Of a stretch of DNA of 64,000 nt, positions 1 through 18,302 are shown piece after piece (within the stretch, counting starts at the first letter, position 1; the number at the start of each line of letters is the position of its first letter). Source of the stretch: Candidatus Moranbacteria bacterium RIFOXYB1_FULL_43_19. Its GTDB lineage: Bacteria; Patescibacteriota; Minisyncoccia; Moranbacterales; UBA11712. The stretch covers positions 33,969 to 97,968 of the forward strand of contig MFSH01000023.1 of NCBI GenBank assembly GCA_001784875.1, given 5' to 3'. The notes under the pieces are model-generated. The model searched no databases and was not told the origin of the DNA. It was given only the letters and a program-made list of their open reading frames with translations. The translations under genes were made by a program, and so were the position numbers.

Positions 1-89
1 TAAAGAATATATAATCTTTAATTAATTGTAAATATGAAAAAACAAAAAGCCTTTTACTCAAGGCCTTTTGTCGTCCCCCCATAAAAGGA

Positions 90-467
90 CTAAACAGCTT
101 TCGGATATTGCGACGAGGAAGAAGAAGACATTGAGACCACTCCCCAGGCTCCCAGAGTCACGGTGATTATTCCGATTATCAGATTATTCCACATCCCCGC
201 GTTTCCGATTGACATCATAAAGAATGGAGTAACAAAAATCCAGGCTCCCAAAAGCACATTAATCCCGTTCAGCCATTTGCCTTCCTCGGACAATCCGATA
301 GCGATCAGCGATACGAGAGCGATTATGACTCCCGTGATAACGTCGTTTAAGCTCAATAATGTTCCGCTGAAGCCGAGAATAAAAGGTGCGACTATGAGCC
401 ACATTCCGGCGAGCACAATCAGCCAGTTAGCTGTTTTTATATTTTGTCTTTCGTTCATTTTTTTCAC
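90..467 (-). CDS. small polytopic membrane protein, SPW-repeat-like (WLIVAPFILGF / AWIFVTPFF motifs after TM helices)
   Basis: 125-aa ORF, 4 predicted TM helices, duplicated W-x-x-V-(A/T)-P-F motif resembling SPW repeat family. Confidence 0.45.
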   Translation of the reverse strand: MKKMNERQNIKTANWLIVLAGMWLIVAPFILGFSGTLLSLNDVITGVIIALVSLIAIGLSEEGKWLNGINVLLGAWIFVTPFFMMSIGNAGMWNNLIIGIITVTLGAWGVVSMSSSSSSQYPKAV

Positions 468-523
468 CTCCCTTCATTTTATATTTGCGCTTATTATAAT
501 CTTTTCCAACCGGCTCATATTTT

Positions 524-1162
524 CTAGTTCATCATCCCCGGAGAAAGATTGTTTTTTTGAAGTTCTTCCCGAAGCATCTTTTTTCCTCGGCTGATCAGCG
601 TTCCGATGGTTCCGATGGGTTTTTCCAAGCGCGAAGCAATTTCCTGATAACTGAATTGTCCATTGTATCTCAAATCAATGGCTTCGCGCTGATTTTTCTG
701 CAGTCTTTCCAGCGCCTCGAAAATCTTGCGACCGTCCAGCTTTCGGGAAACTTCCCGCTCAACATTCTTTTCATCTGCAATTGTATTTTTCAAAAATTCA
801 TTTTCATCGAGAGAAATAGGCGTTCCTGATTTCACATTTTTTCTCCAATGATTAACGGTTTCGTTGTGCGTGATCCGATAGATCCAAGTGGAAAATTTGT
901 TTTTGTTGTTGAAAGAACCGATGTTGACGTATGTTTTCAAAAAAACTGTTTGCAATATGTCCTCTACGGATTCTTTAGTGAGGCCGCTGATGCGTTTCAC
1001 GTAGCGGGTCAGTTTTTCTTCGTACCTTTCTACCAGAAGGGAGTAGCATTCTTTGTTCACTTTCACGAACTCGATGATTTCCTCATCAGTCCGCTTTCCG
1101 CAGAATTCCGAAAGCTCGCAGGGGCAGATCCTTTCTTCTTTTTTTGAGAGTTGTGTTTTCAT
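524..1162 (-). CDS. RNA polymerase sigma-70 family ECF sigma factor with short N-terminal Cys-containing extension
   Basis: Region 2 (LQTVFLKTYVNIGSF..FSTWIYRITHN) and region 4 HTH (REAIDLRYNGQFSYQEIASRLEKPIGTIGTLISRGKKML); N-terminus ICPCELSEFC precedes region 2. Confidence 0.8.
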   Translation of the reverse strand: MKTQLSKKEERICPCELSEFCGKRTDEEIIEFVKVNKECYSLLVERYEEKLTRYVKRISGLTKESVEDILQTVFLKTYVNIGSFNNKNKFSTWIYRITHNETVNHWRKNVKSGTPISLDENEFLKNTIADEKNVEREVSRKLDGRKIFEALERLQKNQREAIDLRYNGQFSYQEIASRLEKPIGTIGTLISRGKKMLREELQKNNLSPGMMN

Positions 1163-1283
1163 GGTCTTTAAAAAATTAAATTTGAATTCTGTCCTTATTA
1201 TATAAAAGGAACATTAAGACAAGATTAAGAAAAAGAGAGTGAAATCCTTGATTTTTTGAGAAAAAAGGGTATAAAATAAAAGT

Positions 1284-1958
1284 ATGAGAATCCTCATAGT
1301 CGAAGACCAGGAAAATCTGGCCAAACTCGTGAAAAAAGGCCTTGAATCGGAAGGCTTTGCCGTTGATTATGTTTTGGAAGGTGATGTTGGCCTAAATCGA
1401 ATTTTAATGCACCGCAATGATTATGACCTGGTGATTCTCGATTGGATGCTTCCCAAAAAAAATGGCGACGAAGTTTGCCGGGAAATAAGGAGTCAGAAAA
1501 TCAGCCTTCCGATTCTGATGCTGACGGCCCGTGACAGTGCCAAAGACATCACGAATGGCCTGGATGCAGGTGCGGATGACTATCTTTCCAAGCCTTTTTC
1601 CTTTGAGGTGCTCCTTGCGAGAATCAGGGCAATACTGCGGCGTCCCAAAACCGCCCTTCCTCTCGAGCTCCAGGCTGGAGAAATTATCCTTGATCCGGCC
1701 AGAAAACAAGTCGCAAAGAAGGGAAAAGAAATAAAATTAACCTTAAAAGAATTCAGCCTTTTGGAATATCTTTTGCGAAATAAAGGAGTGACCGTCACGC
1801 GTGAACAAATACTTTCGAATATCTGGGACTTTGCCTTCGATTCATTCGCCAACGTGGTGGATGTCCATATCACGAATTTGCGGAAAAAAATTGGCGATAA
1901 AGAGGCGAAAATAATCCAAACCGTGAGGGGCATTGGGTACAGGATGAACGATAATTAG
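1284..1958 (+). CDS. OmpR-family two-component response regulator (receiver + winged-helix)
   Basis: MRILIVEDQ..DLVILDWMLP (phospho-acceptor Asp), KPF motif, C-terminal LTLKEFSLLEYL..VVDVHI..LRKKI winged helix. Confidence 0.9.
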   Translation: MRILIVEDQENLAKLVKKGLESEGFAVDYVLEGDVGLNRILMHRNDYDLVILDWMLPKKNGDEVCREIRSQKISLPILMLTARDSAKDITNGLDAGADDYLSKPFSFEVLLARIRAILRRPKTALPLELQAGEIILDPARKQVAKKGKEIKLTLKEFSLLEYLLRNKGVTVTREQILSNIWDFAFDSFANVVDVHITNLRKKIGDKEAKIIQTVRGIGYRMNDN

Positions 1959-1978
1959 GCGATATTCCTTTCAATATA

Positions 1979-2009
1979 AAAACGCCCTGGAGAAACAGGG
2001 CGCTTTTTG
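1979..2009. terminator. bidirectional rho-independent terminator between convergent RR and HK genes
   Basis: CGCCCTG-gagaaa-CAGGGCG hairpin flanked by A-run upstream and T-run downstream. Confidence 0.6.
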
Positions 2010-2021
2010 AAACTCAAGTTC

Positions 2022-4937
2022 TTAGTTGAGCGGAATTGAAAAATAGAAAGTTGTTCCTTTTTCTTCCGCGGAGTCGAACCAGACTTTGGAGCCGGTGAGG
2101 TCGGCAATTGATTTCACCATATAGAGCCCCAGCCCCGCTCCTTCAGAACTCATTTCCTTGGCATTTTCAGCCCGGAAAGTTTTCTCAAAAATCTTTCCTT
2201 TTTGCTTTTCCGGTATGCCGCAGCCCGTATCGCGAACTTCCAACAATACAGCCCCTTTTTCTTTTCTTAGCTCGATGGAAATTTCTCCGCCGGCAGGGGT
2301 ATATCTGATGGCGTTGGAAAGCAAATTATCAAATACTATTTCAAAGCTGTTGGCATTGAAAAACGTCCCAGGAATATTTTCCTGGATTTTTTTTTCAATT
2401 TTTAGTTTCTTTTCCAGAATTATCGGTTCGAACTCTTTCAGCTTGGTTTGAATGACGGAAAGAATATCTAACGGTTCTGTTTCCACGGAAAAAGTTCCCA
2501 TCTCCAGTCGTGAGACATTAAGAAGGTTGTTCACAAGGAGTGCCATCCGCTTTGTTGTCTTATTTATCTCCTCGAGGTATTCCTTCTGGGCGGGTTCCGT
2601 TTTTCCGGCAGTTCCGCGAAGCAATAGTTCTGAAGAAAGAGCGATTGAGGAAAGTGGCGTGCGAAGCTGGTGGGAGGCGAGAGATATAAAATCTTCTTTG
2701 TTTTTTTCCAGCATTTTCTTTTCGGTGATGTCCCGCAAGATCTGAAGTTTGACAGGTGTGCCTTCTGGAGCGGTCATCGGCGTTTCGATAATATCAAATG
2801 TTCTATTCAAATTTTCAAAAAAACATTCCCACCGGACCGATTTTCCGGAGAACACTTCTTTATTCACGCACCAGGGACAGGGCGATTTTCGGCCGTGCAG
2901 GTATTCGAAACACTTTTGTCTTTCAATATTTTGCCCGAAATATTTTTTGAGAGCCGGATTTATGTATGAAATATTATACTCGCGGTTGACGATATATACT
3001 CCATCTTCCATTTTGTTAAGGATTTGTTTTAGCTTCTCTTTTTCATGGTATAGGGCCGCTTCGGCATTCTTGAGTTTTGTGATCTCAGCAGAATAAACAT
3101 TGACATAGGAATCCTTGGCGACTGGAGCAATCGTAATCAGAAACTTTTTATCACCGGCATCCACTTCGATAATCTTCTTGGAGATTTCGCTGATTGCTTC
3201 TTTCACTGCTTTTTCCCATTCTTTTGGTACGGAATCTCCTTTACCAATCTCAAATTTATCAAGAATAATTGTCGAAGCCGGATTTGCATAGATAATTTTT
3301 CCTTCAGACGAAATCCTCATGACTGGATTGGGATTTTCAAGCGGAAACTTGGCAAGGTCGGCTATCTTTTTTTCCGCCATTTTTCTGACAGTAATATCGT
3401 GTACCATTCCGGCAGAGCGAATAATTTTACCGGATTCATCTCGAAAATGTTCGCATTTTTCCTGGACATAGCGAATTTCGCCGCTGGGGCGCAAGACGCG
3501 ATGTTCAATTGCATAAGTGTCGCGGCCATCTCGGATGGAGTTAGAATAAGCTTCATCAACAATTTTGCGATCGTCGGGATGAATCGCCTTGAGAAAAGCC
3601 TCATATGTTGCACCGAACTCTTGCGGTTTGAGACCAAAAATCCGATAAACTTCGTCAGACCAGGTCAATTTGTTCTGGGAAATATCGAGTTCCCAGTTGC
3701 CGAGATGGGCGATTGCTTGAGATCGTTTAAGTCCCTCTTCACTTTCCTTTAGTGCCATCTCCACTTTTTTTCGTTCAGTAATATCCCGAGCAACATGGAC
3801 ACTGCCAAGTAGTTGTCCCTCTCCATTTTTTAGCGGGGTTGTGCTGACAAGAAAATCACCTCCCAAATTAGGCTCGTGCACTTCGCTGATATGTTCTTTG
3901 CCATCGAGCAGACTTTGGGCATGCGGGCACAGTTCGATGGGTCGGTCGCACTTATGGACTGCTTGATAGCATTTCATTCCTATGCAAGCTTCAGCTGTGG
4001 TGCCGAGGCGTTCCGCCATAGCCTTGTTCGCTCGGACTATGCCGTGGTTTTCGTCGAGTATCGCAATAAGGTCCGGAACACTGTTGAAAGTGCGCTCCCA
4101 TCCGTTCTTGGCATCCTGTAAAACTTTTTTGTTTTCGTTCAGCTCCCGAAACATCGAATGGTAGGGTCTCATGAGGCCGAATTCAACCAATGCGAGGTAA
4201 CTTACATAAAAAGCAAGAACCCGCAAGAGGTGGCCGAGTTCATTCGGGAAGCTGTAGACTCCGACATAGAACGCGAAAGTAATTGTCGAAACAAAAAAGA
4301 GCGCGAGCGTGAAAGTTATCAGATGCAGAACGCGTTTTTCCAGGCGGTCTCTGCGTCTCCAGAAAAAATAGAGCGAAAAAATATACGCAGTCGCAACGAT
4401 ATATTCACTGACTTTCTTAAAAGGGGTGAGTCCGGATCCTTCCGCGTAAGCGACGGGAAATATCTTCCAGTAAAAGATCATTGTCAAGAAAAGCGCAAAG
4501 GCGGTCAAATATGCCCAAACAATGGTTTGTGACCTTATTTTCTTCTCTAATAAAAAAGGGGCGATAAGAAAGGTAGTTGCCATAATATATTGATTGGCCA
4601 GCCAAAGTTGAGTGGCAACATTCGAGTCGTTCAATGTTCCGGCCACTACTCCCATACCCCGGTAGGTAAGAGCGTGAATCAGGCTGATCATTCCCGATGT
4701 CAAAAAAGCCATCCCAAAAAAAAGATAGTAATTGTTTTTCACGAATTTTCTGGCATTCCAGGTCAGAAGAAAAATCGCCAGGCTGATAGCCGATCCGAAA
4801 AATTCAGCCAAAACGTGAAAGAGAAGGTAGTTGAAATTGGCCACGATATACAAAACGACCAGAATAAGGCCGATTTGCAATATGCCGACTCTTAAACGTG
4901 TCACAGGAAATTTCGTTATGAAGTTATTGCCTGCCAT
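2022..4937 (-). CDS. multi-PAS sensor histidine kinase with polytopic N-terminal membrane domain
   Basis: C-terminal HisKA H-box (SHQLRTPLSSI) and HATPase_c (DTGCGIPEKQ..GAGLGLYMVK); at least 3 PAS-like segments, two with Cys clusters; ORF extends to 5093, but the MAGNNF start at 4937 avoids overlap with lgt. Confidence 0.85.
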   Translation of the reverse strand: MAGNNFITKFPVTRLRVGILQIGLILVVLYIVANFNYLLFHVLAEFFGSAISLAIFLLTWNARKFVKNNYYLFFGMAFLTSGMISLIHALTYRGMGVVAGTLNDSNVATQLWLANQYIMATTFLIAPFLLEKKIRSQTIVWAYLTAFALFLTMIFYWKIFPVAYAEGSGLTPFKKVSEYIVATAYIFSLYFFWRRRDRLEKRVLHLITFTLALFFVSTITFAFYVGVYSFPNELGHLLRVLAFYVSYLALVEFGLMRPYHSMFRELNENKKVLQDAKNGWERTFNSVPDLIAILDENHGIVRANKAMAERLGTTAEACIGMKCYQAVHKCDRPIELCPHAQSLLDGKEHISEVHEPNLGGDFLVSTTPLKNGEGQLLGSVHVARDITERKKVEMALKESEEGLKRSQAIAHLGNWELDISQNKLTWSDEVYRIFGLKPQEFGATYEAFLKAIHPDDRKIVDEAYSNSIRDGRDTYAIEHRVLRPSGEIRYVQEKCEHFRDESGKIIRSAGMVHDITVRKMAEKKIADLAKFPLENPNPVMRISSEGKIIYANPASTIILDKFEIGKGDSVPKEWEKAVKEAISEISKKIIEVDAGDKKFLITIAPVAKDSYVNVYSAEITKLKNAEAALYHEKEKLKQILNKMEDGVYIVNREYNISYINPALKKYFGQNIERQKCFEYLHGRKSPCPWCVNKEVFSGKSVRWECFFENLNRTFDIIETPMTAPEGTPVKLQILRDITEKKMLEKNKEDFISLASHQLRTPLSSIALSSELLLRGTAGKTEPAQKEYLEEINKTTKRMALLVNNLLNVSRLEMGTFSVETEPLDILSVIQTKLKEFEPIILEKKLKIEKKIQENIPGTFFNANSFEIVFDNLLSNAIRYTPAGGEISIELRKEKGAVLLEVRDTGCGIPEKQKGKIFEKTFRAENAKEMSSEGAGLGLYMVKSIADLTGSKVWFDSAEEKGTTFYFSIPLN

Positions 4938-5046
4938 AAGTTTATACAAGAATGAAAGGCGTTTTATTGTTGAACGAAGCAGGTGCTGGCAATAAAGCGT
5001 TTCATGCCGATTTATTTGTATAGCACAAGGTGTATATTTAGTGAAG

Positions 5047-5874
5047 TCAAGGCCGAAAACCGGAAAATTTTTTGTGAAAAAATAAGGTTGCACCGATTAT
5101 AAGCAGAAAAACAGAAAGCCATTGCCCAAATGTGAGCGACCAAAAAATCCAGCCTTTGTCCGGTTCGCGGAAAAATTCGGCGATGAATCTTGCAATTCCA
5201 TATCCCATCAAATAAAACGAAGTTAGATAGCCGATAGGAAATTTATACTTTCGTAAACTCCATAAAACCGCAAAGAGCAAAATCCCCTCCAAAAAGGCTT
5301 CGTAAAGTTGCGAAGGATGGCGAAGCTGGCCGGAAAAATCCATAGGAAAATACATTCCCCAAAACTTATTCGTAACCCGTCCGTATAATTCCCCATTTAT
5401 GAAATTTCCTAGGCGTCCAAAAGTGAAGGCGAGCGGTACAGCGGGAGCGAACAAATCACTGAATTCTAAAAGATTAATTTTTCGCGTCCGGCAGAAAAGA
5501 TAAAAAGCGAGAGTTAGCCCCAAAAGTCCCCCAAAATAACTCATGCCGTAAATCCCGATGTATTGCCAGTGGTTTCCGATATCAAACGGGAGAAATATTT
5601 GCGAAAGGTGATTTTTGAAATAACTCCAATCGTAAATGAAAACATCTCCCAGTCGCGCGCCCAGCAGAAGTCCGACAATTGCCCACGGGAAAAAATCCTG
5701 GACCGTTTCAAAAGAAATTCCCAAATTTTCGGAACGTATGCGATAACGAATTAAATAATAAGCTATCGCAAAAGAGACCACGTACATAATCCCGTACCAG
5801 GAAACTGGGATTGGTCCGATGGTGAAAGCGATCGGGTTTAGATGCGCGGGAATATTTTGCCAGGCTTGGAGCAT
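5047..5874 (-). CDS. lgt: prolipoprotein diacylglyceryl transferase
   Basis: Lgt signature GRLGNFINGELYG, conserved HPSQLYE, N-terminal IGPIPVSWYGIMY; start taken at MLQAW (ORF runs to 5964). Confidence 0.85.
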   Translation of the reverse strand: MLQAWQNIPAHLNPIAFTIGPIPVSWYGIMYVVSFAIAYYLIRYRIRSENLGISFETVQDFFPWAIVGLLLGARLGDVFIYDWSYFKNHLSQIFLPFDIGNHWQYIGIYGMSYFGGLLGLTLAFYLFCRTRKINLLEFSDLFAPAVPLAFTFGRLGNFINGELYGRVTNKFWGMYFPMDFSGQLRHPSQLYEAFLEGILLFAVLWSLRKYKFPIGYLTSFYLMGYGIARFIAEFFREPDKGWIFWSLTFGQWLSVFLLIIGATLFFHKKFSGFRP

Positions 5875-6046
5875 ATATTTAGTATAGAGTATAAAGTATA
5901 GTGTATAAAGTATCATGTATTTTTTCTTGAAAAAAAGAGCGGTTTGGTGATAGGATAGAAGCAAGTTTATCTATAGGAAAAATTTGGAGGGAGGGATCCG
6001 CAGAACTTTTTTGGCTTAAATTAAATAATAAAATCGATTTTAGGCT

Positions 6047-7045
6047 ATGAATAAGCTAAAAAATACCCTCAAAAAATGGAACTCCATATTTTGCAGTGGA
6101 ATGACCTGTAAGTCCAACATCGGGAGGGATATCGTTGTTCTTTTCCTGTTGATTCTGGTTGCTGCAGTTTTTCTCTATTCAACTGTATATACTCCCATGC
6201 AAGCGGAAAGAAAACCGGCAGTCCAAGCGGGAATTTCCGGCGGTCCCGAGAGTGTCGTCCCTCAAAAAGAAACTTCAGCGCCAATCATGTCGGAAGATAA
6301 TATCTCGAAAGAGGTTGAAAACATAATCAACACAATTGATTCGAGCAACTGGAAAAAAACCAACAACCAGTTCTGGGGTTTTTCAGTGAAATATCCCGGC
6401 GGTTGGCTCTCTCCCAAGAGCCAAAGAAAACCTGCCGGCTCCAAGTGGGAAGCCCGCTATCAATTCAGAAAAAAGGATGCCGGCGGAAATCCTTTTCTCG
6501 GTTTTGACGTCGCAGTTTATGACGTTCCGAAAACGAAGGAACTTCGGAATACTGAAGAATATCCGGTTCCAAAAAATGATAAACCTGATGCAAATAGCCA
6601 ATGCCAAAACATCGAAGGCCATGCAATTGAAATCGATGACTTTCCGGCCGAAGAGATATACATTCCCCTTGGCGATGATTGTTATAATGCCGCTTTGTTT
6701 TTCAGTATTGTGAAAGACAGGTATATCTATAACATCGTTCCAGTTCTCGAGGCCGGAGCCGAGCGGGGAACGGATCCCAGATTGGCCGTAAACGATAATT
6801 TCCCTGACTATTATGCCGCGGCTTCCACTTTGGTTCTTATTGACATTGTGAGGCCGAAACCCGCGCCGCCCAAGCCAAAAATCACCGCGCCAAAACCGGT
6901 GTCGTATAAAGTTGTGGGCGGCAGATTGGTCTGCGCCAAGAAAAACGACAAACCAAGAAAAAGCCGGCAGAACAAGGGGAAGCATCTTGATATGGAATGC
7001 TGTCTTGACCCCGACGAATATCCGAATCCCTGGTGCACGTATTAA
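6047..7045 (+). CDS. membrane-anchored secreted protein, paralog family member A with C-terminal C..GKHxDxxCCxDPDExPNPxCxY motif
   Basis: N-terminal TM anchor; shares GFDV.VY, YxxNIVP, FPxYY..STL blocks and the C-terminal Cys motif with ORFs 15217..15807 and 22088..23068. Confidence 0.6.
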   Translation: MNKLKNTLKKWNSIFCSGMTCKSNIGRDIVVLFLLILVAAVFLYSTVYTPMQAERKPAVQAGISGGPESVVPQKETSAPIMSEDNISKEVENIINTIDSSNWKKTNNQFWGFSVKYPGGWLSPKSQRKPAGSKWEARYQFRKKDAGGNPFLGFDVAVYDVPKTKELRNTEEYPVPKNDKPDANSQCQNIEGHAIEIDDFPAEEIYIPLGDDCYNAALFFSIVKDRYIYNIVPVLEAGAERGTDPRLAVNDNFPDYYAAASTLVLIDIVRPKPAPPKPKITAPKPVSYKVVGGRLVCAKKNDKPRKSRQNKGKHLDMECCLDPDEYPNPWCTY

Positions 7046-7139
7046 GTCCAGAATTGCCACGCAAAGCATCACAGGCGGACTTTTTATACTTTCTTCAGCA
7101 GTTGCCTCGATAAGTACATGAAACTTTAGCTAAAAAAAT

Positions 7140-8636
7140 ATGCCAGTTCAAAATTCCAAAGAAAATCGCAAAAAATGCCTTTGCCCGAACTGTCCGAGTT
7201 ACCCGCATGAATGCGACGGAGAAGTTTTATATTGCGCGGAGAAGGTGGGGCATAGCCAGTGCGACGTGAACGCCAAGGGCTGTCTATGCCCCGGATGTCT
7301 GGTTTGGAGTGAGAATAATCTCAAGGAAATATATTATTGCACGCGCGACACAATAGAACTAGCTTCCGCCCGAGGCGGATCCGCCTTTGGCGGAAAAGTT
7401 GTGATGCGGAAAAAAAAGCCGGACGAGAGCAATGAATTTTATCAGACAGTTGCGGACATAAAAACAATAGCCGAAACAGGCGAGAGCATTGAAAGGCCGA
7501 TGGGTTCGCTCAAGAAGCCGGGTTGCGGGTTATCTCTGGATAATCTGCATTTTGTCCCGGCGCAAGTGGCGAAAATTCCGCTCGACAGGGAAGAAAAAGT
7601 GAAAACTGGTGTTATTATCGGTCCGGTTGCAAAAAAACCGCTCAAAGTTTCATCTCCTATTATGATTACGGGAATGTCTTTTGGCGCGACCTCAAAAAAT
7701 GTGCATCTTGTTATTTCTCGCGTTGCGAAGGAACTGAAAATTGCTTTCAACTCTGGTGAAGGAGGCATCCTTGAAGAAGAATACGAATCAAAGAAATATC
7801 TAATCGGCCAATACGCTACCGGACGATTTGGAATCAATGAAGATGTGATCAAAAAAGTGGCGGCGGTTGAAATTCGCTTTGGACAAGGCGCCTATCCCGG
7901 GAAGGGAAGTTATCTGCCGGCCAAGAAAATGAGCGAAGAAGTCGCGAATCTGCGGGGACTGAAAACAGGCGAACCGGCCTATTCTCCCGCGCACCATCAT
8001 GATATGGAAACGCCAGGGGAAATTGCAGAGAAAGTGAAATGGCTCCGCGAACTGACGGGAGGAGTTCCCATCGGCGCGAAAATCGGCTGTGGAAATGTTG
8101 AGGAAGATGTGAAAGTTTTGGCCGAGGCCGGAATTGATTATATCGCCATTGACGGATTTGGCGGGGGAACAGGTGCGACGGACGCCTATGTCAAAGACAA
8201 CGTTGGGATTCCGGTTTGGGCGGCGATTCCAAAAGCTAATCAAACTCTTCAAGAACTGGGAGCGAGGAAAAATGTTACCCTCATCGCCGGAGGAAGCTTG
8301 CGGCTCTCGGCGGATTTTGCGAAGTGTCTCGCGCTAGGAGCGGATGCTGTTTATATCGGTACGGCCGCGCTCATTGCCATAAACTGCCAGCAGTATCGCG
8401 TCTGCCATACGGGACTTTGCCCGACGGGCGTGACTACCCATCGGCCGGAACTCGCTTCGCAGCTCAATGTCGAAGAAGGCGTCCGAAAATTATCAAACTT
8501 TATAAAAATATCAACCGAAGAAATTGCAGAATTCACAAGAATAGTCGGAAAAGATAATATAAATAAATTATCAAGCGAAGATTTAGTTTCAATAAAAAGA
8601 GATTTGGCGGAAATCCTCGGGGTAAAATGGATATAA
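7140..8636 (+). CDS. glutamate synthase domain-2-like FMN-binding protein (archaeal-type GltB family) with N-terminal 8-Cys module
   Basis: GSLRLSADFAKCLALGADAVYIGTAALIAINC..C..TGLCPTG matches GltB FMN/Fe-S domain; N-terminus CLCPNCP..C..C..CLCPGC. Confidence 0.75.
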   Translation: MPVQNSKENRKKCLCPNCPSYPHECDGEVLYCAEKVGHSQCDVNAKGCLCPGCLVWSENNLKEIYYCTRDTIELASARGGSAFGGKVVMRKKKPDESNEFYQTVADIKTIAETGESIERPMGSLKKPGCGLSLDNLHFVPAQVAKIPLDREEKVKTGVIIGPVAKKPLKVSSPIMITGMSFGATSKNVHLVISRVAKELKIAFNSGEGGILEEEYESKKYLIGQYATGRFGINEDVIKKVAAVEIRFGQGAYPGKGSYLPAKKMSEEVANLRGLKTGEPAYSPAHHHDMETPGEIAEKVKWLRELTGGVPIGAKIGCGNVEEDVKVLAEAGIDYIAIDGFGGGTGATDAYVKDNVGIPVWAAIPKANQTLQELGARKNVTLIAGGSLRLSADFAKCLALGADAVYIGTAALIAINCQQYRVCHTGLCPTGVTTHRPELASQLNVEEGVRKLSNFIKISTEEIAEFTRIVGKDNINKLSSEDLVSIKRDLAEILGVKWI

Positions 8637-8642
8637 AAAAAT

Positions 8643-8730
8643 CCACTACTATATATAGTTGTGGTCTTTCTACAAAATAAAAAGCAGGATTTATTATCTT
8701 CCATCCTACTACAACTAGTTGCAGTAGGAT
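8643..8730. repeat. pair of palindromes (CCACTACTATATATAGTTGTGG and ATCCTACTACAACTAGTTGCAGTAGGAT)
   Basis: Same two palindrome types recur at 61866..61925 in reversed order. Confidence 0.55.
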
Positions 8731-8756
8731 TTTATTTATCGCTGACGGAGCAAGTA

Positions 8757-8987
8757 TTATTCCGTTGCTCCCCGGAAGCAAAAATACCCGTCTTCCAAAT
8801 TATATTCCGCGTGGACAGGACAGGCGCCGCAAAGACATCCTTCCTTGGAAAGTTTGCAGGCTGTTTTTCCTTTGGCGCAGTAGAGATTTTCTTCCTTTTC
8901 TTCGGGACAGTTTGATTGGGTGAAAGTCGGACACTTTGGGCAAAAACATTTTTCCGCGTTTTCTTTTGTATTAGGAACTCTTGTCAT
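8757..8987 (-). CDS. standalone small Cys-rich protein paralogous to N-terminus of 7140..8636
   Basis: 76 aa; KEN.(E/K)KC.CP.CP..YCA(E/K)...C....(K/E)GCLC..C aligns residue-by-residue with the GltB-like N-terminal module. Confidence 0.6.
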   Translation of the reverse strand: MTRVPNTKENAEKCFCPKCPTFTQSNCPEEKEENLYCAKGKTACKLSKEGCLCGACPVHAEYNLEDGYFCFRGATE

Positions 8988-9002
8988 ATCTTTTGTGAAA
9001 AC

Positions 9003-9227
9003 CTAGAACCCCAAATAGGCTGAAAGAGCAAAGAGGGCATGGACCAACGCCAAAAAAATTGTCAGTTTCGCCAGTCGGAGATGCCATTTGAAAGGAATTT
9101 TTGTGTTGCCCTTGAAATTCAGATAGCCGATTGTCGCAGTTGAAAAAAGAGAAAGCAAAGCCAGCATCCCCAGATAAGCAACAATAGGCAGACCCAATAT
9201 TAGAGTATAGGCGATTTTTAAGATCAT
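9003..9227 (-). CDS. small 2-TM membrane protein
   Basis: 74-aa hydrophobic ORF immediately downstream of cupredoxin gene on same strand. Confidence 0.4.
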   Translation of the reverse strand: MILKIAYTLILGLPIVAYLGMLALLSLFSTATIGYLNFKGNTKIPFKWHLRLAKLTIFLALVHALFALSAYLGF

Positions 9228-9230
9228 GCT

Positions 9231-9707
9231 TTATTCTACGATCAATTTTCCGACCATTCCTTGCTGGCGATGAGTGGGAACGCTGCAATAATATTCAAAC
9301 GTTCCTATCTTGTCAGCGACGAATTCAATCGAATCGCTCTGGCCGGTTTGAACAACTTTCGTTCTGGCGTTGAATTCTTCTATGACCCAGTCGTGCATTC
9401 CCAGAGTGACAGCCAGATTAATTCTTACTCTATCACCTTTTTTCACTTTTATTTCTTTGATAGAAAATTCAAAGGGTTTGGCGGAGACGTCAAAAGATTT
9501 CACGCTTTGGTTGTCAGCCGAAGATTCTTTTGGAGCGTCAGTTGGAGTGCCCTGAGAGAGAGTTGCGGAATCCTTATTTCCGCCCCGGGAGAAAAGGATT
9601 ATTCCAATGATTGCAGCCGCAACTACTGCAATCCAAACCATCGAATTGCCTTTTGCCGGCATTTCATTTTGGTCTTTTTGCTCCTCGCTTGTTTCTTTTT
9701 CTTCCAT
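9231..9707 (-). CDS. membrane-anchored cupredoxin (blue copper protein, plastocyanin/amicyanin-like)
   Basis: Type-1 Cu ligand pattern H (GMHDW)...C-x2-H-x4-M (YYCSVPTHRQQGM); N-terminal TM anchor. Confidence 0.75.
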   Translation of the reverse strand: MEEKETSEEQKDQNEMPAKGNSMVWIAVVAAAIIGIILFSRGGNKDSATLSQGTPTDAPKESSADNQSVKSFDVSAKPFEFSIKEIKVKKGDRVRINLAVTLGMHDWVIEEFNARTKVVQTGQSDSIEFVADKIGTFEYYCSVPTHRQQGMVGKLIVE

Positions 9708-9779
9708 ATTTTTAGCTTGAATATCATGGGTTATAAATATTGATAAATTTCTGTCCTAATACTAAATAATACCATATAT

Positions 9780-11027
9780 TTGTCAAATTATTTCAGAGTT
9801 GCGGCAACCCTGGCTGGTTTAAATAATAAGCATATGGAAGGGTTTCTCTTGGTCTTGCGTAAATATAGTAATATGGAAGAAGAAAATTCAAAAAATAATT
9901 ATGGAAGAAGATCTGGCGTTTTTGTTTGGATTAAGGCTTTTATAGCGGTCGGAATCATTCTTTTTGCCTATCAATGGATCAACAATGCAGGTTGGGCAAG
10001 CAAAAGCATAATTGACTCCGAGCTCACGCTTGGAATTTCTTTTCTAACTGGGGTAGCAGCTTCCTTTTCAACATGCCTCGCCGTTGTCGGAGGAATGGTC
10101 ATTGCTTTTTCAGAAAAGTACGAATCCCGGGACAAAAATTTTTTTGCCGGAGTGATTCGGCCGAATCTATATTTCCACATTGGCCGACTGATAACCTTTT
10201 TTTTCTTGGGAGGAATTCTGGGCTTCGTCGGAGGAACGCTCAATATCAGCGGAAATTTTGTCTCCATGTACACCATTGTCTTCGCTGTTGTGATGGGCTG
10301 GCTGGGTCTCAATATTTTAGGAATCCTTCCTCCAATTTCGGCGCTCGGCTGGCGGATGCCAAAAAGCCTGACAAGACTTTGGGCAAAAATGGAAAATTCA
10401 GAGCACCAGGCAGCGCCGTTTCTTTTGGGCGGGCTCACTTTTTTTCTACCTTGCGGGTTTACCCAGAGCACCCAAGTTCTGGCTCTGGTTTCGGGAAGTT
10501 TTTTCGCCGGCGCGCTGGGACTTTTACTTTTTGCGCTGGGAACGATGCCGGTTCTCATGGCGGTGGGAGTTGCCACTTCCTGGGCGCGAAACAAAAAATT
10601 CGAAACTTTTCAGAAAGCGGCCGGAATTCTTATTATCTTTTTTGCGATATTTTCATTTCAAGCGGGTCTAGCGCTCAAAAGTGTGAAAAAAAATGTGATT
10701 TCTAATCCGGTTTCAAATTCAGAAAAAACGCAACTCTCCAAAGTCTTGCCAAACAATTTAGCTGAAAACCAAACGGTGGAAATGAGTGTTACGAGTCGCG
10801 GTTTTGAGCCGGGCAGCTTAAAAATAAAAAAAGGCACGCCGGTCCGCTGGATTATCAGGGGGGTTTCCGTCAGTGGTTGCACCAACCAGATTATTATCCC
10901 CAGTCTGGATATTGCTAAAAACATCAGTTCCGGTGAGAATATAATCAGTTTTGTTCCTCCGGACGTACGTGAAATTCCTTTCAGCTGTGGAATGGGAATG
11001 GTACGTGGGAAATTTATTCTTGAATAA
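9780..11027 (+). CDS. CcdA/DsbD-like polytopic membrane protein fused to C-terminal cupredoxin-like domain
   Basis: TM Cys residues ([15 protein letters not shown]) typical of DsbD_2/CcdA-like proteins; C-terminal beta-domain ending [15 protein letters not shown]; true start likely internal (MEGF/MEEEN). Confidence 0.6.
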
Positions 11028-11095
11028 ATTTCCCAAAGTTCAAAGTTCAAGATGAAAAAATAAAAATTTTTGGGTCCCGCTCTTCGGGACAGCTT

Positions 11096-13312
11096 ATGCT
11101 TATGAATCGCAAAAAGACGATGGTAACAATTTCCGGAATGACTTGCGCGAGTTGTGCCGTTTCGAACGAAAAAGAACTCTTGAAAACAAAGGGCATTTTG
11201 GACGCGTCGGTGAATTTCGCGGCCAAAAAGGCCTTTGTCGAATACGACGCGGACGAATTGAGCGAAGATGATGTAAAGAAGGTAATCAAAGACAACGGAT
11301 ACCAAATCGTGGAGCACGAAGAACATAGCATAAAACACAAACACGCCATGGTTATGGAAAACGGCGGTCACGAACATGCCAGCGAAGACATCAAAAATAA
11401 TTGGCAGGCATTTCTTTGGTCGGCCGTTTTTAGCCTGCCGCTTGTTTTGGAAATGGTTTATCAAATCCGGGCTGGTAAAAATATCCTTGGCATTGATCAG
11501 GTGATGTGGCTGCATCTCGTTTTGGCAACGTTTGTTGTTTTATTGTTCGGCTGGAGATTTCACCGAATGGCGTTCATGCAAGCCAAAAAATTTCGGGCCA
11601 ATATGGACACCCTGATATCGCTTGGAACGCTTACGGCTTATTTTTTCAGTTTGTGGGCAATTTTCAACGGGCGGGAGAGTTATCTTGAATCAGCTGCGCT
11701 TATAATCACATTCATTCTTCTCGGTAAATATTTTGAAGCCAAAAGCACGGGACAAGCCGGAGAGGCAATGCGCAAACTCTTGGAGCTGGGAGCAAAAAGA
11801 GCCCGCGTGGTTACGGAGGCCGGAGAAAAAGAAGTGCTCGTCGACGAGATAAAAGTTGGCGATGTGATTGTGGTGAAACCGGGCGAAAAAATTCCACTCG
11901 ACGGAATTGTTCTTGAAGGGGAATCCAACGTGGACGAATCTATGCTCACAGGCGAATCATTGCCGGTAGAAAAGAAAAAATTTTCCTCGATTTTTGGGGC
12001 AACGGTCAATCAGGATGGCGTGCTAAAAATAAAAGTGATGCAGATCGGAGAGCAGACAGTACTGGCGCAGATTATCAAAACCGTTGAGCAAGCACAGAGT
12101 TCGAAAGCTCCCATTCAAAAATTGGCTGACAAGATTTCTGGAATTTTTGTGCCAATTGTGATTGTTCTGGCTGCCATATCTTTCATCGGCTGGTATGGTT
12201 TTTCGGCTGATTTCACAAAAGCTCTGATCAATGCGGTGGCGGTTTTGGTGATTGCCTGTCCCTGCGCTTTGGGCCTTGCGACGCCAGCGGCAATCATGGT
12301 TGGAACGGGAAGGGGTGCGAAGCAAGGAATACTTTTCAAAAACGGGGAAAGCTTCGAAAGGGCAAAAGATATATCGATGATTGTGTTTGACAAAACGGGC
12401 ACGCTGACGAAAGGTCGGCCGGAAGTTGAAAGAGTTTTTGTGAATCCCGGCTTTAATTTCTCGAAGGATAAAATTTTAAAGATAGCGGGGAGCTTGGCGA
12501 AGCATTCCGAACACCCTCTTTCGAAGGCCGTAGCTGATTATATACACAAGAAAAATATTGCCCCAGTGGACATGAAAAATATCAAAGAGGAAAGGGGGAA
12601 AGGAATTTCGGCAGTTTGCGAGGAACACGGAACAAAATTGCTTTTGGGGAATAGAAAACTTTTAGAAGATAACAAAATTGACACAACGTGGGCGCAGGAC
12701 ATTCTGGAATCGGAAGAATTTCAATCTGGAACAAAATTATTTGTTGCGCATGGCAATGAAACCGTGGGCGCGATTGCAGTGGCGGATGAATTGCGAAATG
12801 AAGCGAAAGAAGCTCTGGGCAAGCTGAAAAAGATGGGACTGAAGATTGGAATGATGACAGGCGACAGCAAAAAAACGGCTGAACATATTGCCAAGGCCCT
12901 GGAAATAAAAGATGTCCGAGCTGAAGTTTTGCCCTCGGAGAAGGCGAATGAAATAAAAAGACTTCAGAGTATTGGGGAGAAGGTTGTTTTCGTGGGCGAT
13001 GGGATCAATGACGCGCCGAGCCTTGTTCAGGCTGATCTTGGAATTGCCATGGGATCAGCACAGGATATTGCCAAAGAGGCGGGACAGATTATTCTTGTCC
13101 ACAATAATCTCAAGAAAGTTGTTGAGGCCGTTGCAGTATCCAGGCTTACTTTCAAAACTATCCGCCAGAATCTTTTCTGGGCGTTCGGATATAATGTCGT
13201 TGCTATTCCACTCGCCATGGCCGGGTTCCTGAATCCCATTATTGCGGCGGGAGCTATGGCTTTTTCTTCTGTTTCAGTGGTGTTGAACAGTTTGAGGATT
13301 TATCGGAAATGA
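11096..13312 (+). CDS. copA: copper-translocating P1B-type ATPase
   Basis: N-terminal [17 protein letters not shown] motif ([11 protein letters not shown]), DKTGTLT phosphorylation site, GDGINDAP hinge. Confidence 0.9.
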
Positions 13313-13464
13313 AAAAGCAGGAAAGAAACCTTTTTTTATTTCCGACTTTAGAGATTATTTCGAAAACGTGAACTCCGAACCACGATATTGTTTCCGAAGG
13401 TGCCGGAATTTTGATTTATCTTTAATTTTCAGCGATACGTTATTTTCCGCTCGACTCCCCAAAG

Positions 13465-14544
13465 CTATTGTGGTGCGAGGGTGAAAGTATTGAGCAATGC
13501 TCCGTCCGGCCCATGGGTTTCGACCGTGATAGCTTTCCCGTTCACCTTCACAAGGCCAAAGCGGCCCTGTCCTTGGTTCGCGTATTCGGCGACGCCCGCG
13601 ACGGGAAGGTCATGATTGAAAGAATCAGTATTTCCGAAAACGAACTGATAAACTCCTCCGATTTTCCGGCGGCTGACGATATGTTCATGACCGTTGAAAA
13701 CAGCTTTCACGTTGTGCTTTTCCAAAATTCGCCAAAGAGCGTTGCGCTCCGCGGGATCAAAATCCAAGCTCTCAGTCATTTTCGAGCTTACTGGATAAGC
13801 CGGCTCATGAAAAAAGACGAAAGTATTTTCTTTCTTGGTTGCAGCTAAATCCCTTTCCAGCCAATCTCTTTGGGTACTGTTAATCTTGTGTTCATCTGGC
13901 TTGTCGCTGTCCAGAAATACAAAATGGGAATTCTTGAGATCAAGAGAATAGGCAAATTCAGTGAATCCGCTTGGTCCGTTAATCGGGAAACTGAAGGCAT
14001 CCGCCCAGAATTGGTCACACTCATCCATATTCTCCACCCGGTCATGATTTCCTTGAACGGCGTAGGTTTTCTCTGCCAGCGGACCCAGAATATTTTTCCA
14101 GTTAGCATAATCCCGATTATTGTCACTTTTTCCCTTGCAGTTGCTAACGAGATCCCCAGTAGCGATAACAAGATCGGGATTTTTTTCTTTTATCCGAGCT
14201 ACCGCTTTTTGAAAATTGCCCTTCGAATTTCCGGCAGTGAATCTTTGCGTGTCGCCGAGAATGGCGAAAGTGAAGCCATTATCGCCGAAATTTTCTGCAG
14301 TCTTATTTTTATCTCCAGAAAAAGGATTGGAAACAGCCTCTTCAATTTTCTCAGCTTCTTTCTTGATGTCATCCAGTACATCCGCCAAAACTCCCCGAAA
14401 CGATTTGATCTCGGGTGCGAAAGAATTTCCAGCTAGCTGATCTGAAGTTGGCGTTGTCTTTTTCAGAACAACCAAAAAATACACCAGACCGGCCAGGACA
14501 GCGAGAGCAGCAAAGATGGCAATGCCGACTAAGAATTTTTTCAT
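13465..14544 (-). CDS. membrane-anchored calcineurin-like metallophosphoesterase
   Basis: GDTQ, GDLV, GNHD, HEP, GHEH metallophosphatase motifs in order; N-terminal TM helix. Confidence 0.8.
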   Translation of the reverse strand: MKKFLVGIAIFAALAVLAGLVYFLVVLKKTTPTSDQLAGNSFAPEIKSFRGVLADVLDDIKKEAEKIEEAVSNPFSGDKNKTAENFGDNGFTFAILGDTQRFTAGNSKGNFQKAVARIKEKNPDLVIATGDLVSNCKGKSDNNRDYANWKNILGPLAEKTYAVQGNHDRVENMDECDQFWADAFSFPINGPSGFTEFAYSLDLKNSHFVFLDSDKPDEHKINSTQRDWLERDLAATKKENTFVFFHEPAYPVSSKMTESLDFDPAERNALWRILEKHNVKAVFNGHEHIVSRRKIGGVYQFVFGNTDSFNHDLPVAGVAEYANQGQGRFGLVKVNGKAITVETHGPDGALLNTFTLAPQ

Positions 14545-14635
14545 AGAGGCAGTTTTATTATAGCACCAAAAAACGAAAACATAACCAGACGAGCCCAGCT
14601 ATGTTTTTAGTACGCTATTTATAAAGATTATTTTG

Positions 14636-15061
14636 CTATTGGGCCGGAGTGTCACCTCCAGAAAAGGCTAAATATGGCATGAAAATAATCGGAATAAGAA
14701 CGGCCAGCACTCCCCAAACGGCTGATTTCCCAAGTCTTCTGGCAATGTCAATCCAGACCACGAAATTAAGGACGACTCCAGCAATATTAATAATCGGTAC
14801 CAGCCAGAAAATGAGCCACCACATCGGACGCCCCGCAATCTGGAGCATCAGAACGAGATTCAGGATTGGAATCCAAGCAAACCAGGCATTTTCCGTGTTT
14901 GTGCGCTTCGCGATTTTCATAAGCGAAATTGCCATCAGAACATAGATAACAAGAATGAACAGCAATACGAACAAGAACATTCCGCCGGCCAGCAAGGCCA
15001 TCCCGCCCGCGGCGGCAGCCGGCACGTCACTTGAATACTGCATATTGTATGTCGGGTCCAT
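14636..15061 (-). CDS. small polytopic membrane protein of unknown function
   Basis: 141 aa, 3-4 TM helices (WFAWIPILNLVLML, WWLIFWLVPIINIAG). Confidence 0.5.
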   Translation of the reverse strand: MDPTYNMQYSSDVPAAAAGGMALLAGGMFLFVLLFILVIYVLMAISLMKIAKRTNTENAWFAWIPILNLVLMLQIAGRPMWWLIFWLVPIINIAGVVLNFVVWIDIARRLGKSAVWGVLAVLIPIIFMPYLAFSGGDTPAQ

Positions 15062-15216
15062 AAGTCACCTCCCTTCGTTATTTTTGTTTTACCTGTTTTT
15101 ATGATACCAGAAAACAAAAAATAGACCAAAAAGAAAAAAATAAACAGCTAAAAGTAGCGCAAATGGTATCTTTCTTGGTATAATTTACAGGAAAGCTACT
15201 CGTATTTTTCAAGGGC

Positions 15217-15807
15217 ATGCTATCCAGGAGACTCAAAAAGATAAATTTGAGCCCATTCCAAAAAGTCAAATGGGAACCGGAAAAGGCGAAAACAACGGCT
15301 TTAGTCTTGCTCGGCGCTTTTGTCTTTGGAGTTTCTTTTTTGGGGAGTGGAAAAATTCTGTTTGATTTCAACCAAAAGGAAAGGCAGAGTATGCTTGGCA
15401 GCCAGCTAGAAGAATATGGCTTTGGAAATGCCCTGGCGGCCGAGAATCAAGAAAACGAAAATATACTCCATTCCGAAGAATTTTTTTTCCCCGAAGAAAG
15501 ACAGGTTTCCGAAGTGATGTCGGAGGCAGCTGGTTCGGTGAAGATTTTAGCCATCAAAAAAGCAAAAGCGGAAGCAGCTGCCAGAAAACTCGCTGCGGAA
15601 AAAGCTTTGAGACGGAGCGCTCCGATTCTTTCAGGATCAACAAAAAAACTTCCCAACGGGCTTCGGGTTTGCACCGGAAACAGCGATCATCCGCAAAGGG
15701 GAGGAGCGACGCACATGGACGAGGACTGTTGTGCCGACTACAATGAAACTCCCAATCCGCGCTGTTACTATAGCCCAGAAAAGATGGGAATTTTAAAGAA
15801 AAAATGA
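15217..15807 (+). CDS. membrane-anchored secreted protein, paralog family member B (shorter) with C-terminal Cys/His motif
   Basis: C-terminus VCTGNSDHPQRGGATHMDEDCCADYNETPNPRCYY matches motif of 6047..7045 and 22088..23068. Confidence 0.55.
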   Translation: MLSRRLKKINLSPFQKVKWEPEKAKTTALVLLGAFVFGVSFLGSGKILFDFNQKERQSMLGSQLEEYGFGNALAAENQENENILHSEEFFFPEERQVSEVMSEAAGSVKILAIKKAKAEAAARKLAAEKALRRSAPILSGSTKKLPNGLRVCTGNSDHPQRGGATHMDEDCCADYNETPNPRCYYSPEKMGILKKK

Positions 15808-15887
15808 GGCAGATAATTATTTATTTTCCACAAAAAGAGAAAGGGCGGATCCGTGCGGATCCGCCCTGTTTAGATGGGAAAAAATAA

Positions 15888-16190
15888 CTAGGAGGGTTGC
15901 CTGATGTTCAGGGTGAGTGGAGAGAAATCGGCCAGTAGGCTTTGCATCTCTATTGGCGTCAGGAAATGCCCGCAATTGTCGATATTGTTGAATCCGAGGA
16001 CGGTAGTTTTGCTTAATCCGTCCCGGCACGGCACGATTTGTCCCACGGTATACGAATGACCGTTTAATTTCACGACGTTGCCCTTGATTCTCAGTTGCGA
16101 GAGTGGCATTCCGCGATTTTCGGGCATCGCGAGAATATTCACTATGCACTTTGGACATGCATAAACTTCATCCTTGGTCTCTCCGGCCAT
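15888..16190 (-). CDS. hypothetical Cys-containing protein (CPKC...C...C)
   Basis: ORF 15888..16310; likely start MAGETKD; no recognisable family. Confidence 0.3.
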   Translation of the reverse strand: MAGETKDEVYACPKCIVNILAMPENRGMPLSQLRIKGNVVKLNGHSYTVGQIVPCRDGLSKTTVLGFNNIDNCGHFLTPIEMQSLLADFSPLTLNIRQPS

Positions 16191-16334
16191 GGCTCCTCCC
16201 AATTTTTTCCCAAAATTATACCAGCTTCGATGAGCTGGACTTTTTTCTGTCTTAATTTTATAAAAAAATAAAACAGATGGCAACACGCTAGAAAATTTAT
16301 GTCTTGACAAAGAACTCCCGGTAGTTTTCGATTT

Positions 16335-16922: not shown

Positions 16923-16970
16923 GGTATAATTATCTTGGATATAGCTTCATTATATTATATCCAATGCATT

Positions 16971-18281: not shown

Positions 18282-18302
18282 TCATCAAGTTGTGATCAGG
18301 CA

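Follow-up and report, generated by a model that had tools for sequence, protein, structure and literature searches.

We analyzed a 64,000-nucleotide stretch of the genome of Candidatus Moranbacteria bacterium RIFOXYB1_FULL_43_19 (contig MFSH01000023.1), hereafter the window, in which the small cysteine-rich module DUF2769 (PF10967) is encoded twice. One copy is the N-terminal domain of a protein that resembles the synthase domain of glutamate synthase (GltS), known as GltB-like, and we refer to this protein as the fusion. The other copy is a free protein of 76 amino acids (aa). On balance, we favor the view that DUF2769 is a metal-centre partner dedicated to the GltB-like enzyme, most likely in electron transfer. 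An earlier sequence-only reading had placed the two genes in convergent orientation, and both are present as it described; the operon to which the free gene belongs had escaped it. The features of the locus are as follows.

7140..8636, plus strand: fusion gene, 498 aa, with an N-terminal DUF2769 module and a GltB-like TIM-barrel domain of the flavin mononucleotide (FMN)/[3Fe-4S] type (open reading frame [ORF]; Pfam PF10967 and PF01645).
7176..7343, plus strand: in-cis DUF2769 module, aa 13-68 (Pfam match, cysteine conservation).
7536..8549, plus strand: FMN-binding Glu_synthase domain (PF01645), aa 133-470 (Pfam, E 1e-113; aligns with 7MFM, 1LLW and 1EA0).
8385..8423, plus strand: C-x5-C-x4-C-P motif (C416, C422, C427), counterpart of the [3Fe-4S] ligands of glutamate synthase (sequence, alignment).
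8637..8756, no strand: convergent intergenic spacer of 120 bp, in which a long, imperfect hairpin (about 8638-8733) precedes a T-run.
8757..8987, minus strand: free DUF2769 gene, 76 aa, with the module at aa 14-70 (nucleotides 8778..8948) (ORF, Pfam, BLASTP, synteny).
9003..9227, minus strand: 74-aa gene, whose product is predicted to have two transmembrane helices; the free DUF2769 gene follows 15 bp downstream (ORF).
9231..9707, minus strand: gene for a membrane-anchored type-1 cupredoxin, 158 aa, first gene of the cupredoxin/74-aa/DUF2769 operon (Pfam Copper-bind, Cupredoxin_1).

The free DUF2769 gene is the last gene of the minus-strand operon, in which cupredoxin (9707..9231), 74-aa (9227..9003) and DUF2769 (8987..8757) genes follow one another with gaps of 3 and 15 bp. 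It meets the fusion gene across the 120-bp spacer. The spacer hairpin (RNA fold of -25.5 kcal/mol, z -2.4) and its T-run possibly form a bidirectional terminator, for which the evidence is weak because a scan for consensus terminators did not pick the hairpin up. The fusion module and the free ORF are the only two DUF2769 copies in the window; no third one was found in the 64 kb.

Both copies scored above the Pfam gathering cut-off for DUF2769 (22.8 bits), the module of the fusion (aa 13-68) with 42.6 bits and that of the free ORF (aa 14-70) with 56.4 bits, in agreement with the guess of the sequence-only reading that the module might be DUF2769-like. The alignment it drew between the fusion N terminus and the whole small ORF also held: in BLASTP, the first 80 aa of the fusion and the complete free protein shared 32 identities in 75 positions (43%, E 6e-18). 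The description of the module as an eight-cysteine unit was accurate for the family but not for the window, where each copy has 10 cysteines, eight in the family core and two that are less conserved. The core residues are C13, C15, C18, C32, C48, C50, C53 and C67 in the fusion and C14, C16, C19, C37, C51, C53, C56 and C70 in the free ORF, and exactly eight cysteines were invariant in 77 diverse free homologues. Among 84 fusion proteins, seven core cysteines were present in every sequence and C13 in 83; the two extra cysteines occurred in 79 and 75. The module is an internal repeat made of two units of C-x-C-x2-C-P...[Y/F]-C. Profiles of its first and second halves matched each other in hhalign with a probability of 96% and an E value of 4e-9, a figure that cysteine-dominated profiles can inflate.

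When run on the 77-sequence alignment, AlphaFold2 modeled the free protein with a mean predicted local distance difference test score (pLDDT) of 89 and a predicted template modeling score (pTM) of 0.73. The model consists of short helices only, and beta-hairpins are absent. Foldseek found no counterpart for it in the PDB (best E, 9.6), and sequence and profile searches of the module against the PDB gave a best E value of only 0.88. The paired CxxC knuckles on beta-hairpins that mark rubredoxins and zinc ribbons are missing from the module, as is any Pfam or fold match to these proteins. Likewise, it has neither the CxxCxxCxxxCP motifs of 2x[4Fe-4S] ferredoxins nor a Fer4 match in the Pfam scan. 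Since the confident all-helical model has no counterpart among solved structures, the module is, as judged from prediction, not a rubredoxin or a generic zinc ribbon; the sequence-only reading had named the opposite outcome as fatal to its proposal. The family is rare, with 782 clusters at 50% identity among 1.84 billion representatives. Proteomics of Methanosarcina mazei has revealed a small DUF2769 protein (PMC12704099), and an automated domain classifier has been noted to overlook DUF2769, which forms a cluster of archaeal proteins (bioRxiv 10.64898/2026.04.01.715805).

The fusion is widespread and its architecture is nearly constant. At least 120 homologues (60-83% identical), from Moranbacteria, other bacteria of the candidate phyla radiation (CPR), Methanobacteriaceae, Methanoperedens and anaerobic methanotrophic (ANME-1) archaea, carry PF10967 together with PF01645; this was the case for all of those listed, with two apparent exceptions only. 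These two, P0026 and P0031, were considered as homologues that lack DUF2769 and were rejected as apparently truncated gene calls. On the 150-kb contig of P0031, the ORF (in locus L012) is full length and includes the module. We then worked with a set of loci obtained by scanning one genome per GTDB species with the full-length fusion alignment, from which the best 80 of 147 confirmed loci were used. Most belong to Methanobacteriaceae, Methanoperedens, ANME-1/Methanophagales and Methanomicrobiales, and about 14 of the 80 are bacterial (Moraniibacteriota, Paceibacterota, other Patescibacteria and a few others). The Moranbacteria fusion is 56-66% identical to the archaeal fusions (Methanobacteriaceae, Methanoperedens and ANME-1; L008-L087). 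Because this identity is high for a comparison between a bacterium and an archaeon, it suggests that the locus was transferred horizontally between the two domains, possibly along with a PAS kinase described below.

The free copy is a real gene. A deposited hypothetical protein from the same organism matches the 76-aa protein at 100% identity. Among its orthologues of the Moranbacteria type, the proportion of synonymous differences (pS) was 0.6-0.9, near saturation, and that of nonsynonymous differences (pN) was 0.15-0.35; the ratio of nonsynonymous to synonymous rates (dN/dS) was 0.08-0.31 where computable, and about 0.1 in comparisons with the window copy. Purifying selection on the free copy is clear. 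We called ORFs in all loci, with flanks of at most 8 kb, and searched them with hidden Markov models built for this analysis. Of the 80 species-level loci, 36, from both archaea and bacteria, had a free DUF2769 ORF no farther than 8 kb from the fusion, and in 30 the distance was at most 600 bp. The rarity of the family makes chance adjacency negligible. Across CPR bacteria and archaea, the small ORF is thus retained, and in synteny with the fusion; a lack of conservation in relatives was one of the outcomes that the sequence-only reading had named as refuting its proposal. That the free ORF might be a chance ORF was ruled out by homology, synteny and dN/dS.

The free form is 76 to 86 aa long in CPR bacteria and 98 to 111 aa in archaea, where the same cysteine pattern is kept and about 25 aa are inserted between the repeats. 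Archaeal free genes usually lie directly upstream of the fusion and are co-directional with it (Methanoperedens, ANME-1 and Methanomicrobia); in several Methanobacterium loci they lie directly downstream. Each free copy is 44-93% identical to free copies elsewhere, compared with 24-48% to the module of its own neighboring fusion. As every free copy is closer to the free copies of other genomes than to its own fusion, the free and in-cis modules are, by sequence, old paralogues kept side by side. The sequence-only reading had spoken of a duplication; there are indeed two homologous modules, but they are not a local copy, and the identity pattern rules out a recent local duplication. Purifying selection, together with a lineage separate from that of the in-cis modules, argues for a non-redundant role of the free copy.

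The gene is easily overlooked. In L002 and L003, an intact 76-aa DUF2769 ORF is present at 7476..7706 on the minus strand (E 5e-27), where the public call is a 39-aa ORF (L002, 7493..7612) or nothing (L003). Because the small gene is under-annotated in databases, co-occurrence counts taken from called genes are too low. A word-indexed protein search with the 76-aa ORF alone returned six close relatives, and profile searches were needed to see the family. Additional copies were seen in two loci: L064 has a tandem pair of free DUF2769 genes downstream of the fusion (9541..9855 and 9908..10201, plus strand), and L008 has an additional 159-aa ORF upstream (7806..8285, plus strand) that encodes a DUF2769 with a long insert.

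The arrangement of these genes varies between loci, but the set is retained. In other Moranbacteria, the cupredoxin, 74-aa and DUF2769 genes face the fusion in the same order as in the window. In L006 and L014, whose fusions are 62-65% identical, the order is 74-aa, DUF2769 and fusion, all co-directional with gaps of 10 to 20 bp, and in L004 and L030 the 74-aa gene immediately precedes the fusion. One further contig carries cupredoxin, 74-aa, DUF2769 and fusion genes in a single direction with gaps of 15, 3 and 16 bp; in this four-gene cluster, the 74-aa gene was assigned by its size and its position between the cupredoxin and DUF2769 genes, not by sequence. Read from these gene orders, the convergent layout of the window is one arrangement of a four-gene unit.

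The module also occurs in a split form. In L088, a 67-aa DUF2769 gene (4001..4204, plus strand) ends 20 bp before a 413-aa GltB-like gene (4225..5466, plus strand). The latter starts at the conserved MRKK linker of the fusions, lies in a different frame and has its own GAGG box. This form supports the earlier proposal that the module works both in cis and as a separate partner. The split pair adjoins genes for two heavy-metal-associated (HMA) proteins, a P-type ATPase and an Fe/Mn superoxide dismutase.

Moreover, DUF2769 accompanies other redox enzymes. In P0290 (428 aa), it is fused to the C terminus of a glucose/sorbosone dehydrogenase (GSDH, PF07995). GSDH genes neighbor the fusion in two CPR loci (L004, 8069..9226; L006, 4185..5384), and two free DUF2769 proteins carry the JGI label "aldose sugar dehydrogenase." A DUF2769 gene lies directly upstream of an FMN_dh gene in L004 and near FMN_red genes in L091 and L092. 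In L090, it adjoins a gene for an NAD_binding_1 protein of the ferredoxin-NADP reductase (FNR) type, with a cupredoxin gene two genes beyond. In 28 Methanobacteriaceae loci, a thiamine pyrophosphate (TPP) enzyme with an N-terminal rubredoxin is encoded immediately upstream of the fusion on the same strand, with a median gap of 64 bp (for example, the 585-aa protein of cluster c2 at 6143..7900, plus strand, in L037). In L093, a free DUF2769 gene lies directly downstream of the gene for a TPP enzyme without rubredoxin. Beside TPP enzymes, rubredoxin and DUF2769 seem able to take each other's place. The recurring theme is a small cysteine-rich module that accompanies oxidoreductases of unrelated folds, either in cis or in trans.

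The 74-aa protein has two hydrophobic helices, a basic loop (PFKWH) and two histidines, H49 and H63 (H-x13-H), in or near helix 2. Its homologues adjoin the fusion or a free DUF2769 gene in 12 distinct loci, and 12 distinct homologues align without gaps in the conserved core, with both histidines invariant. Neither Pfam nor NCBIfam gave a match for this protein. Among the 80 GTDB loci the family was found in eight, one of them archaeal. An H-x13-H spacing ligates two stacked b hemes in di-heme transmembrane cytochromes. By analogy, a homodimer of the 74-aa protein could in principle hold two hemes across the membrane; with only two helices and 74 aa, the protein would have to dimerise. The cupredoxin of the window matched Copper-bind with 41 bits and Cupredoxin_1 with 35 bits, both above the cut-offs, and its translation contains the ligand set H...C-x4-H-x4-M (GMH...YYCSVPTHRQQGM).

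The cysteine pattern and the redox enzymes that accompany DUF2769 are the basis for reading it as a redox partner. The eight cysteines would most likely hold two 4-cysteine metal centres. Our preferred guess is that these are Fe-S clusters, because each repeat has a spacing of three close cysteines and one remote cysteine as well as a Cys-Pro pair; as far as sequence can tell, this arrangement resembles cubane Fe-S ligation more than zinc knuckles. The in-cis copy would then wire the [3Fe-4S]/FMN centre of the enzyme to the protein surface, and the free copy would carry electrons between the enzyme and other partners. The sequence-only reading had cast the module as a possible electron donor to the enzyme. 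Blue-copper proteins have high potentials. Given a high-potential cupredoxin partner, we infer that flow out of the enzyme, with DUF2769 as acceptor and not donor, is the more natural direction. The enzyme would then act as a dehydrogenase that discharges to an external sink, and not as a reductase supplied by DUF2769.

In CPR bacteria, the chain may continue through the 74-aa membrane protein to the extracytoplasmic type-1 cupredoxin, so that the four genes would provide a short path from the oxidation of a cytoplasmic substrate to the outside of the membrane. The electrons would pass from an FMN/[3Fe-4S] dehydrogenase to a Cys8 Fe-S carrier of new fold, then to a dimeric two-helix wire containing two hemes (or another metal), and finally to an extracellular blue-copper protein. 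We hold this complete four-gene version, which would give Moranbacteria and related CPR bacteria a minimal electron conduit across the membrane, to be rather doubtful.

Several observations weigh against a role of DUF2769 in electron transfer, or against parts of the route just outlined. The Pfam scan of the module matches no Fe-S family, and the eight cysteines could equally bind two structural zinc ions. An AlphaFold model of the whole fusion (21-sequence alignment) had pLDDT values below 50 for residues 1-129 and was therefore unusable for placing DUF2769 relative to the [3Fe-4S] site. As 44 of the 80 loci, mostly from Methanobacteriaceae, have no free copy within 8 kb, the free protein is not obligatory as a neighbor. 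One free copy (L089) lies among housekeeping genes. The split form comes from one metagenome-assembled genome only, where an assembly error is possible. Furthermore, few loci outside the bacteria encode the 74-aa protein or the cupredoxin, and CPR bacteria generally lack heme synthesis, which speaks against the di-heme idea.

One alternative involves zinc. Here DUF2769 would be a structural interaction domain with two ZnCys4 sites and no redox role, and the free copy would be an adaptor or regulator that, for example, tethers the enzyme to the 74-aa membrane protein or competes with the in-cis domain. A domain of some 60 aa with eight invariant cysteines could accommodate two Cys4 sites, small cysteine-rich archaeal proteins are very often zinc proteins, and the module shows no similarity to any Fe-S family; the conserved synteny would suit a purely structural partner equally well. 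However, the cysteines are spaced 3+1 (C-x-C-x2-C-P ... C) and not as paired CxxC...CxxC knuckles, and the model of short helices matches no solved zinc fold. The neighbors, moreover, are nearly always redox enzymes or carriers of unrelated folds (FMN, pyrroloquinoline quinone [PQQ], TPP, FNR-like and cupredoxin), as would be expected for an electron carrier and less so for an adaptor specific to one enzyme family. We consider a purely structural zinc domain possible but unlikely.

The genes beyond the operon raise the question of copper. Upstream of the cupredoxin gene, the window contains the following features.

9759..9786, minus strand: promoter-like site TTGACA-16-TAGTAT upstream of the cupredoxin gene, 10 of 12 matches (consensus match only).
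9780..11027, plus strand: gene for a DsbD_2 membrane domain fused to a cupredoxin, divergent from the cupredoxin operon (Pfam).
11096..13312, plus strand: gene for a CopA-type copper P-type ATPase with an HMA domain (Pfam).

The total of promoter-like consensus sites in the region was not above the shuffled expectation. The free DUF2769 could act in copper homeostasis, as a Cu(I) chaperone or a metallothionein-like sink, with the GltB-like neighbor merely lying beside a copper-resistance cluster. The free gene of the window is, by gene spacing, co-transcribed with the cupredoxin gene and lies near the DsbD_2-cupredoxin and CopA genes. A CsoR-type repressor gene is present in a relative, copper or HMA genes lie near DUF2769 in L088 and L090, and three archaeal loci (L018, L073 and L077) have CopA-like genes close to the fusion. 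Cu(I) thiolate proteins typically contain C-x-C and C-x2-C motifs. Nonetheless, most adjacent pairs have no copper gene (among 84 loci, a CopA-like gene was seen in six and a cupredoxin in five), and the L006/L014 operon lies among ribosomal-protein and housekeeping genes, without copper genes. A copper role would also leave the universal fusion of the module to an FMN enzyme unexplained, and we regard it as improbable.

The PF01645 match of the fusion (380 bits) spans profile positions 30-367 of 369. The FMN domain aligned with the GltS large chains 7MFM, 1LLW and 1EA0 (E values of 7e-39 to 1.6e-33). The [3Fe-4S]-type motif, C416, C422 and C427 with its proline, was invariant in all 84 fusion proteins, and the fusion is thus predicted to carry a [3Fe-4S] cluster site like that of GltS. 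Equivalences to GltS residues were taken from the 1LLW alignment, and conservation was counted in the 84 fusions. In structures of ferredoxin-dependent GltS with 2-oxoglutarate, E903, Q969, K972, Q978 and R992 are substrate-site residues.

GltS E903: E207 in the fusion, in 84 of 84.
GltS Q969: Q249 in the fusion, in 78 of 84.
GltS R992: R272 in the fusion, in 84 of 84.
GltS K972: Y252 in the fusion, tyrosine in 84 of 84.
GltS E975: K255 in the fusion, lysine in 84 of 84.
GltS Q978: Y258 in the fusion; tyrosine in 77, phenylalanine in five and leucine in two, never glutamine.

Two extra cysteines, C317 and C396, are invariant in the fusion subfamily and absent from GltS, and the subfamily signature is GAYPGKGS[YF], compared with GAKPGEGGQ in GltS. 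The subfamily-invariant positions Y252, K255, Y258, C317 and C396 may mark a different substrate site or a catalytic cysteine. In Pfam, the fusion contains DUF2769 and PF01645 only, without an amidotransferase, central or GXGXG domain. None of the nine annotated recurrent neighbor clusters supplied one of these domains, either, a statement that covers the 84 loci and not whole genomes. Eight of the clusters were annotated by Pfam (DUF5591-PUA, rubredoxin-TPP, geranylgeranyl reductase, PAS kinase, CopA, cupredoxin, metallophosphatase and DUF5684) and the 74-aa protein, which has no family match, by eye. NCBIfam assigned no equivalog to the fusion at cut-off, and its score against the GltB model was 143 bits, compared with a cut-off of 1047 bits for that model. 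Genes for subunits A and B of N-methylglutamate synthase were not among the neighbors in any gene context read. Some sources name homologues "glutamate synthase" or, at JGI, "methylamine---glutamate N-methyltransferase subunit C"; these labels look like over-annotation.

Because K972 and Q978 are replaced, mainly by tyrosine, the enzyme is probably no glutamate synthase, and we propose that it is probably a GltB-fold FMN/[3Fe-4S] oxidoreductase that acts on a substrate other than 2-iminoglutarate. An archaeal-type glutamate synthase or N-methylglutamate synthase subunit C, with DUF2769 as its electron-input domain, would account for the strong PF01645 match, the retained FMN and [3Fe-4S] features and the names in some sources, but it is very improbable in view of the missing domains, the changes at K972, E975 and Q978, and the NCBIfam scores.

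Other genes of the window lie near the locus. Directly upstream of the fusion, a 332-aa ORF (6047..7045, plus strand) encodes an N-terminal hydrophobic segment and a cysteine-rich C-terminal tail (...MECCLDPDEYPNPWCTY). It had no Pfam or NCBIfam match and is not conserved in place: relatives have a gene for a HAD hydrolase, TrmB or Lgt there. A MASE3-PAS-PAS histidine kinase is encoded at 2022..5093 (minus strand), with a response regulator (1284..1958, plus strand) and a sigma-70 factor (524..1162, minus strand) nearby. Its first PAS domain (aa ~329-449) is rich in cysteine and histidine (C..C..VH.C......CPH) and is 55% identical over 121 aa to the PAS domain of kinases encoded directly downstream of the fusion in Methanobacteriaceae. 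Of the 84 loci, 17, from both domains of life, encode a homologous PAS kinase close to the fusion. The kinase may be a dedicated redox or metal sensor for the locus. tRNA and tmRNA genes and Rfam families at the gathering threshold were absent from the whole window (1..64000).

DUF2769 and the DUF2769-Glu_synthase architecture are already present in Pfam and in NCBI annotation. In the literature searched, DUF2769 appears to be mentioned only in passing, and the pairing of a free with a fused copy and the split form appear undescribed. The same appears to hold for the spectrum of redox partners, the four-gene unit with a two-histidine mini membrane protein and a cupredoxin, and the evidence against a glutamate synthase. 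Free-standing GltB-like FMN/[3Fe-4S] proteins occur widely among methanogens, methane-oxidising archaea and CPR bacteria. An obligate fusion, an adjacent free copy, a split form and other flavin, PQQ and TPP partners turn two "unknowns" into one testable system. If DUF2769 is an Fe-S carrier, it would represent a new fold class of small electron-transfer protein, and its link in CPR bacteria to the two-histidine and blue-copper proteins would point to an unrecognised transmembrane electron route in organisms thought to have no respiratory chains. If the conduit were true, fermentative, respiration-poor organisms could dispose of reducing equivalents outside the cell, and in methanogens and ANME archaea this DUF2769 carrier would work with flavoenzymes and with TPP enzymes. 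If DUF2769 binds zinc only, the locus would be an ordinary case of a conserved accessory subunit.

Finally, we compared the locus with known systems. Both window ORFs are members of Pfam DUF2769 by score and by their eight core cysteines; the Pfam description contains neither the free-plus-fused pairing nor the 74-aa protein nor the cupredoxin link. The synthase domain of GltB (7MFM, 1LLW/1OFD and 1EA0) shares with the fusion the TIM-barrel FMN domain, the C-x5-C-x4-C motif and the equivalents of E903, Q969 and R992. In contrast to GltB, the fusion has only 498 aa, lacks the glutaminase, central and GXGXG domains, is changed at K972, Q978 and E975, has the extra cysteines C317 and C396, and carries DUF2769 at its N terminus.

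Archaeal-type GltS-like proteins, such as MJ1351 of Methanocaldococcus jannaschii, have an N-terminal 2x[4Fe-4S] ferredoxin before the FMN domain. They resemble the fusion in placing a small cysteine-rich domain in front of the same FMN domain, and they are the main analogy for reading DUF2769 as an electron module. DUF2769 differs from their ferredoxin in having no CxxCxxCxxxCP motifs or Fer4 match and in its predicted all-helical fold. Rubredoxin and ferredoxin carriers provide a further parallel. DUF2769, too, occurs fused to, split from and adjacent to several classes of redox enzymes, and the TPP neighbor in Methanobacteriaceae carries a rubredoxin at the equivalent N-terminal position, although DUF2769 has no sequence or fold similarity to these carriers. 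Its pattern in cis and in trans is the one that ferredoxins, rubredoxins and flavodoxins show. Di-heme b cytochromes (cytochrome b of bc1, ferric reductase/Nox and MsrQ) differ from the 74-aa protein, which has only two helices and no family match; the H-x13-H on one transmembrane helix is common to both, and the place of the 74-aa gene between cytoplasmic redox genes and an extracytoplasmic cupredoxin gene would fit such a role.

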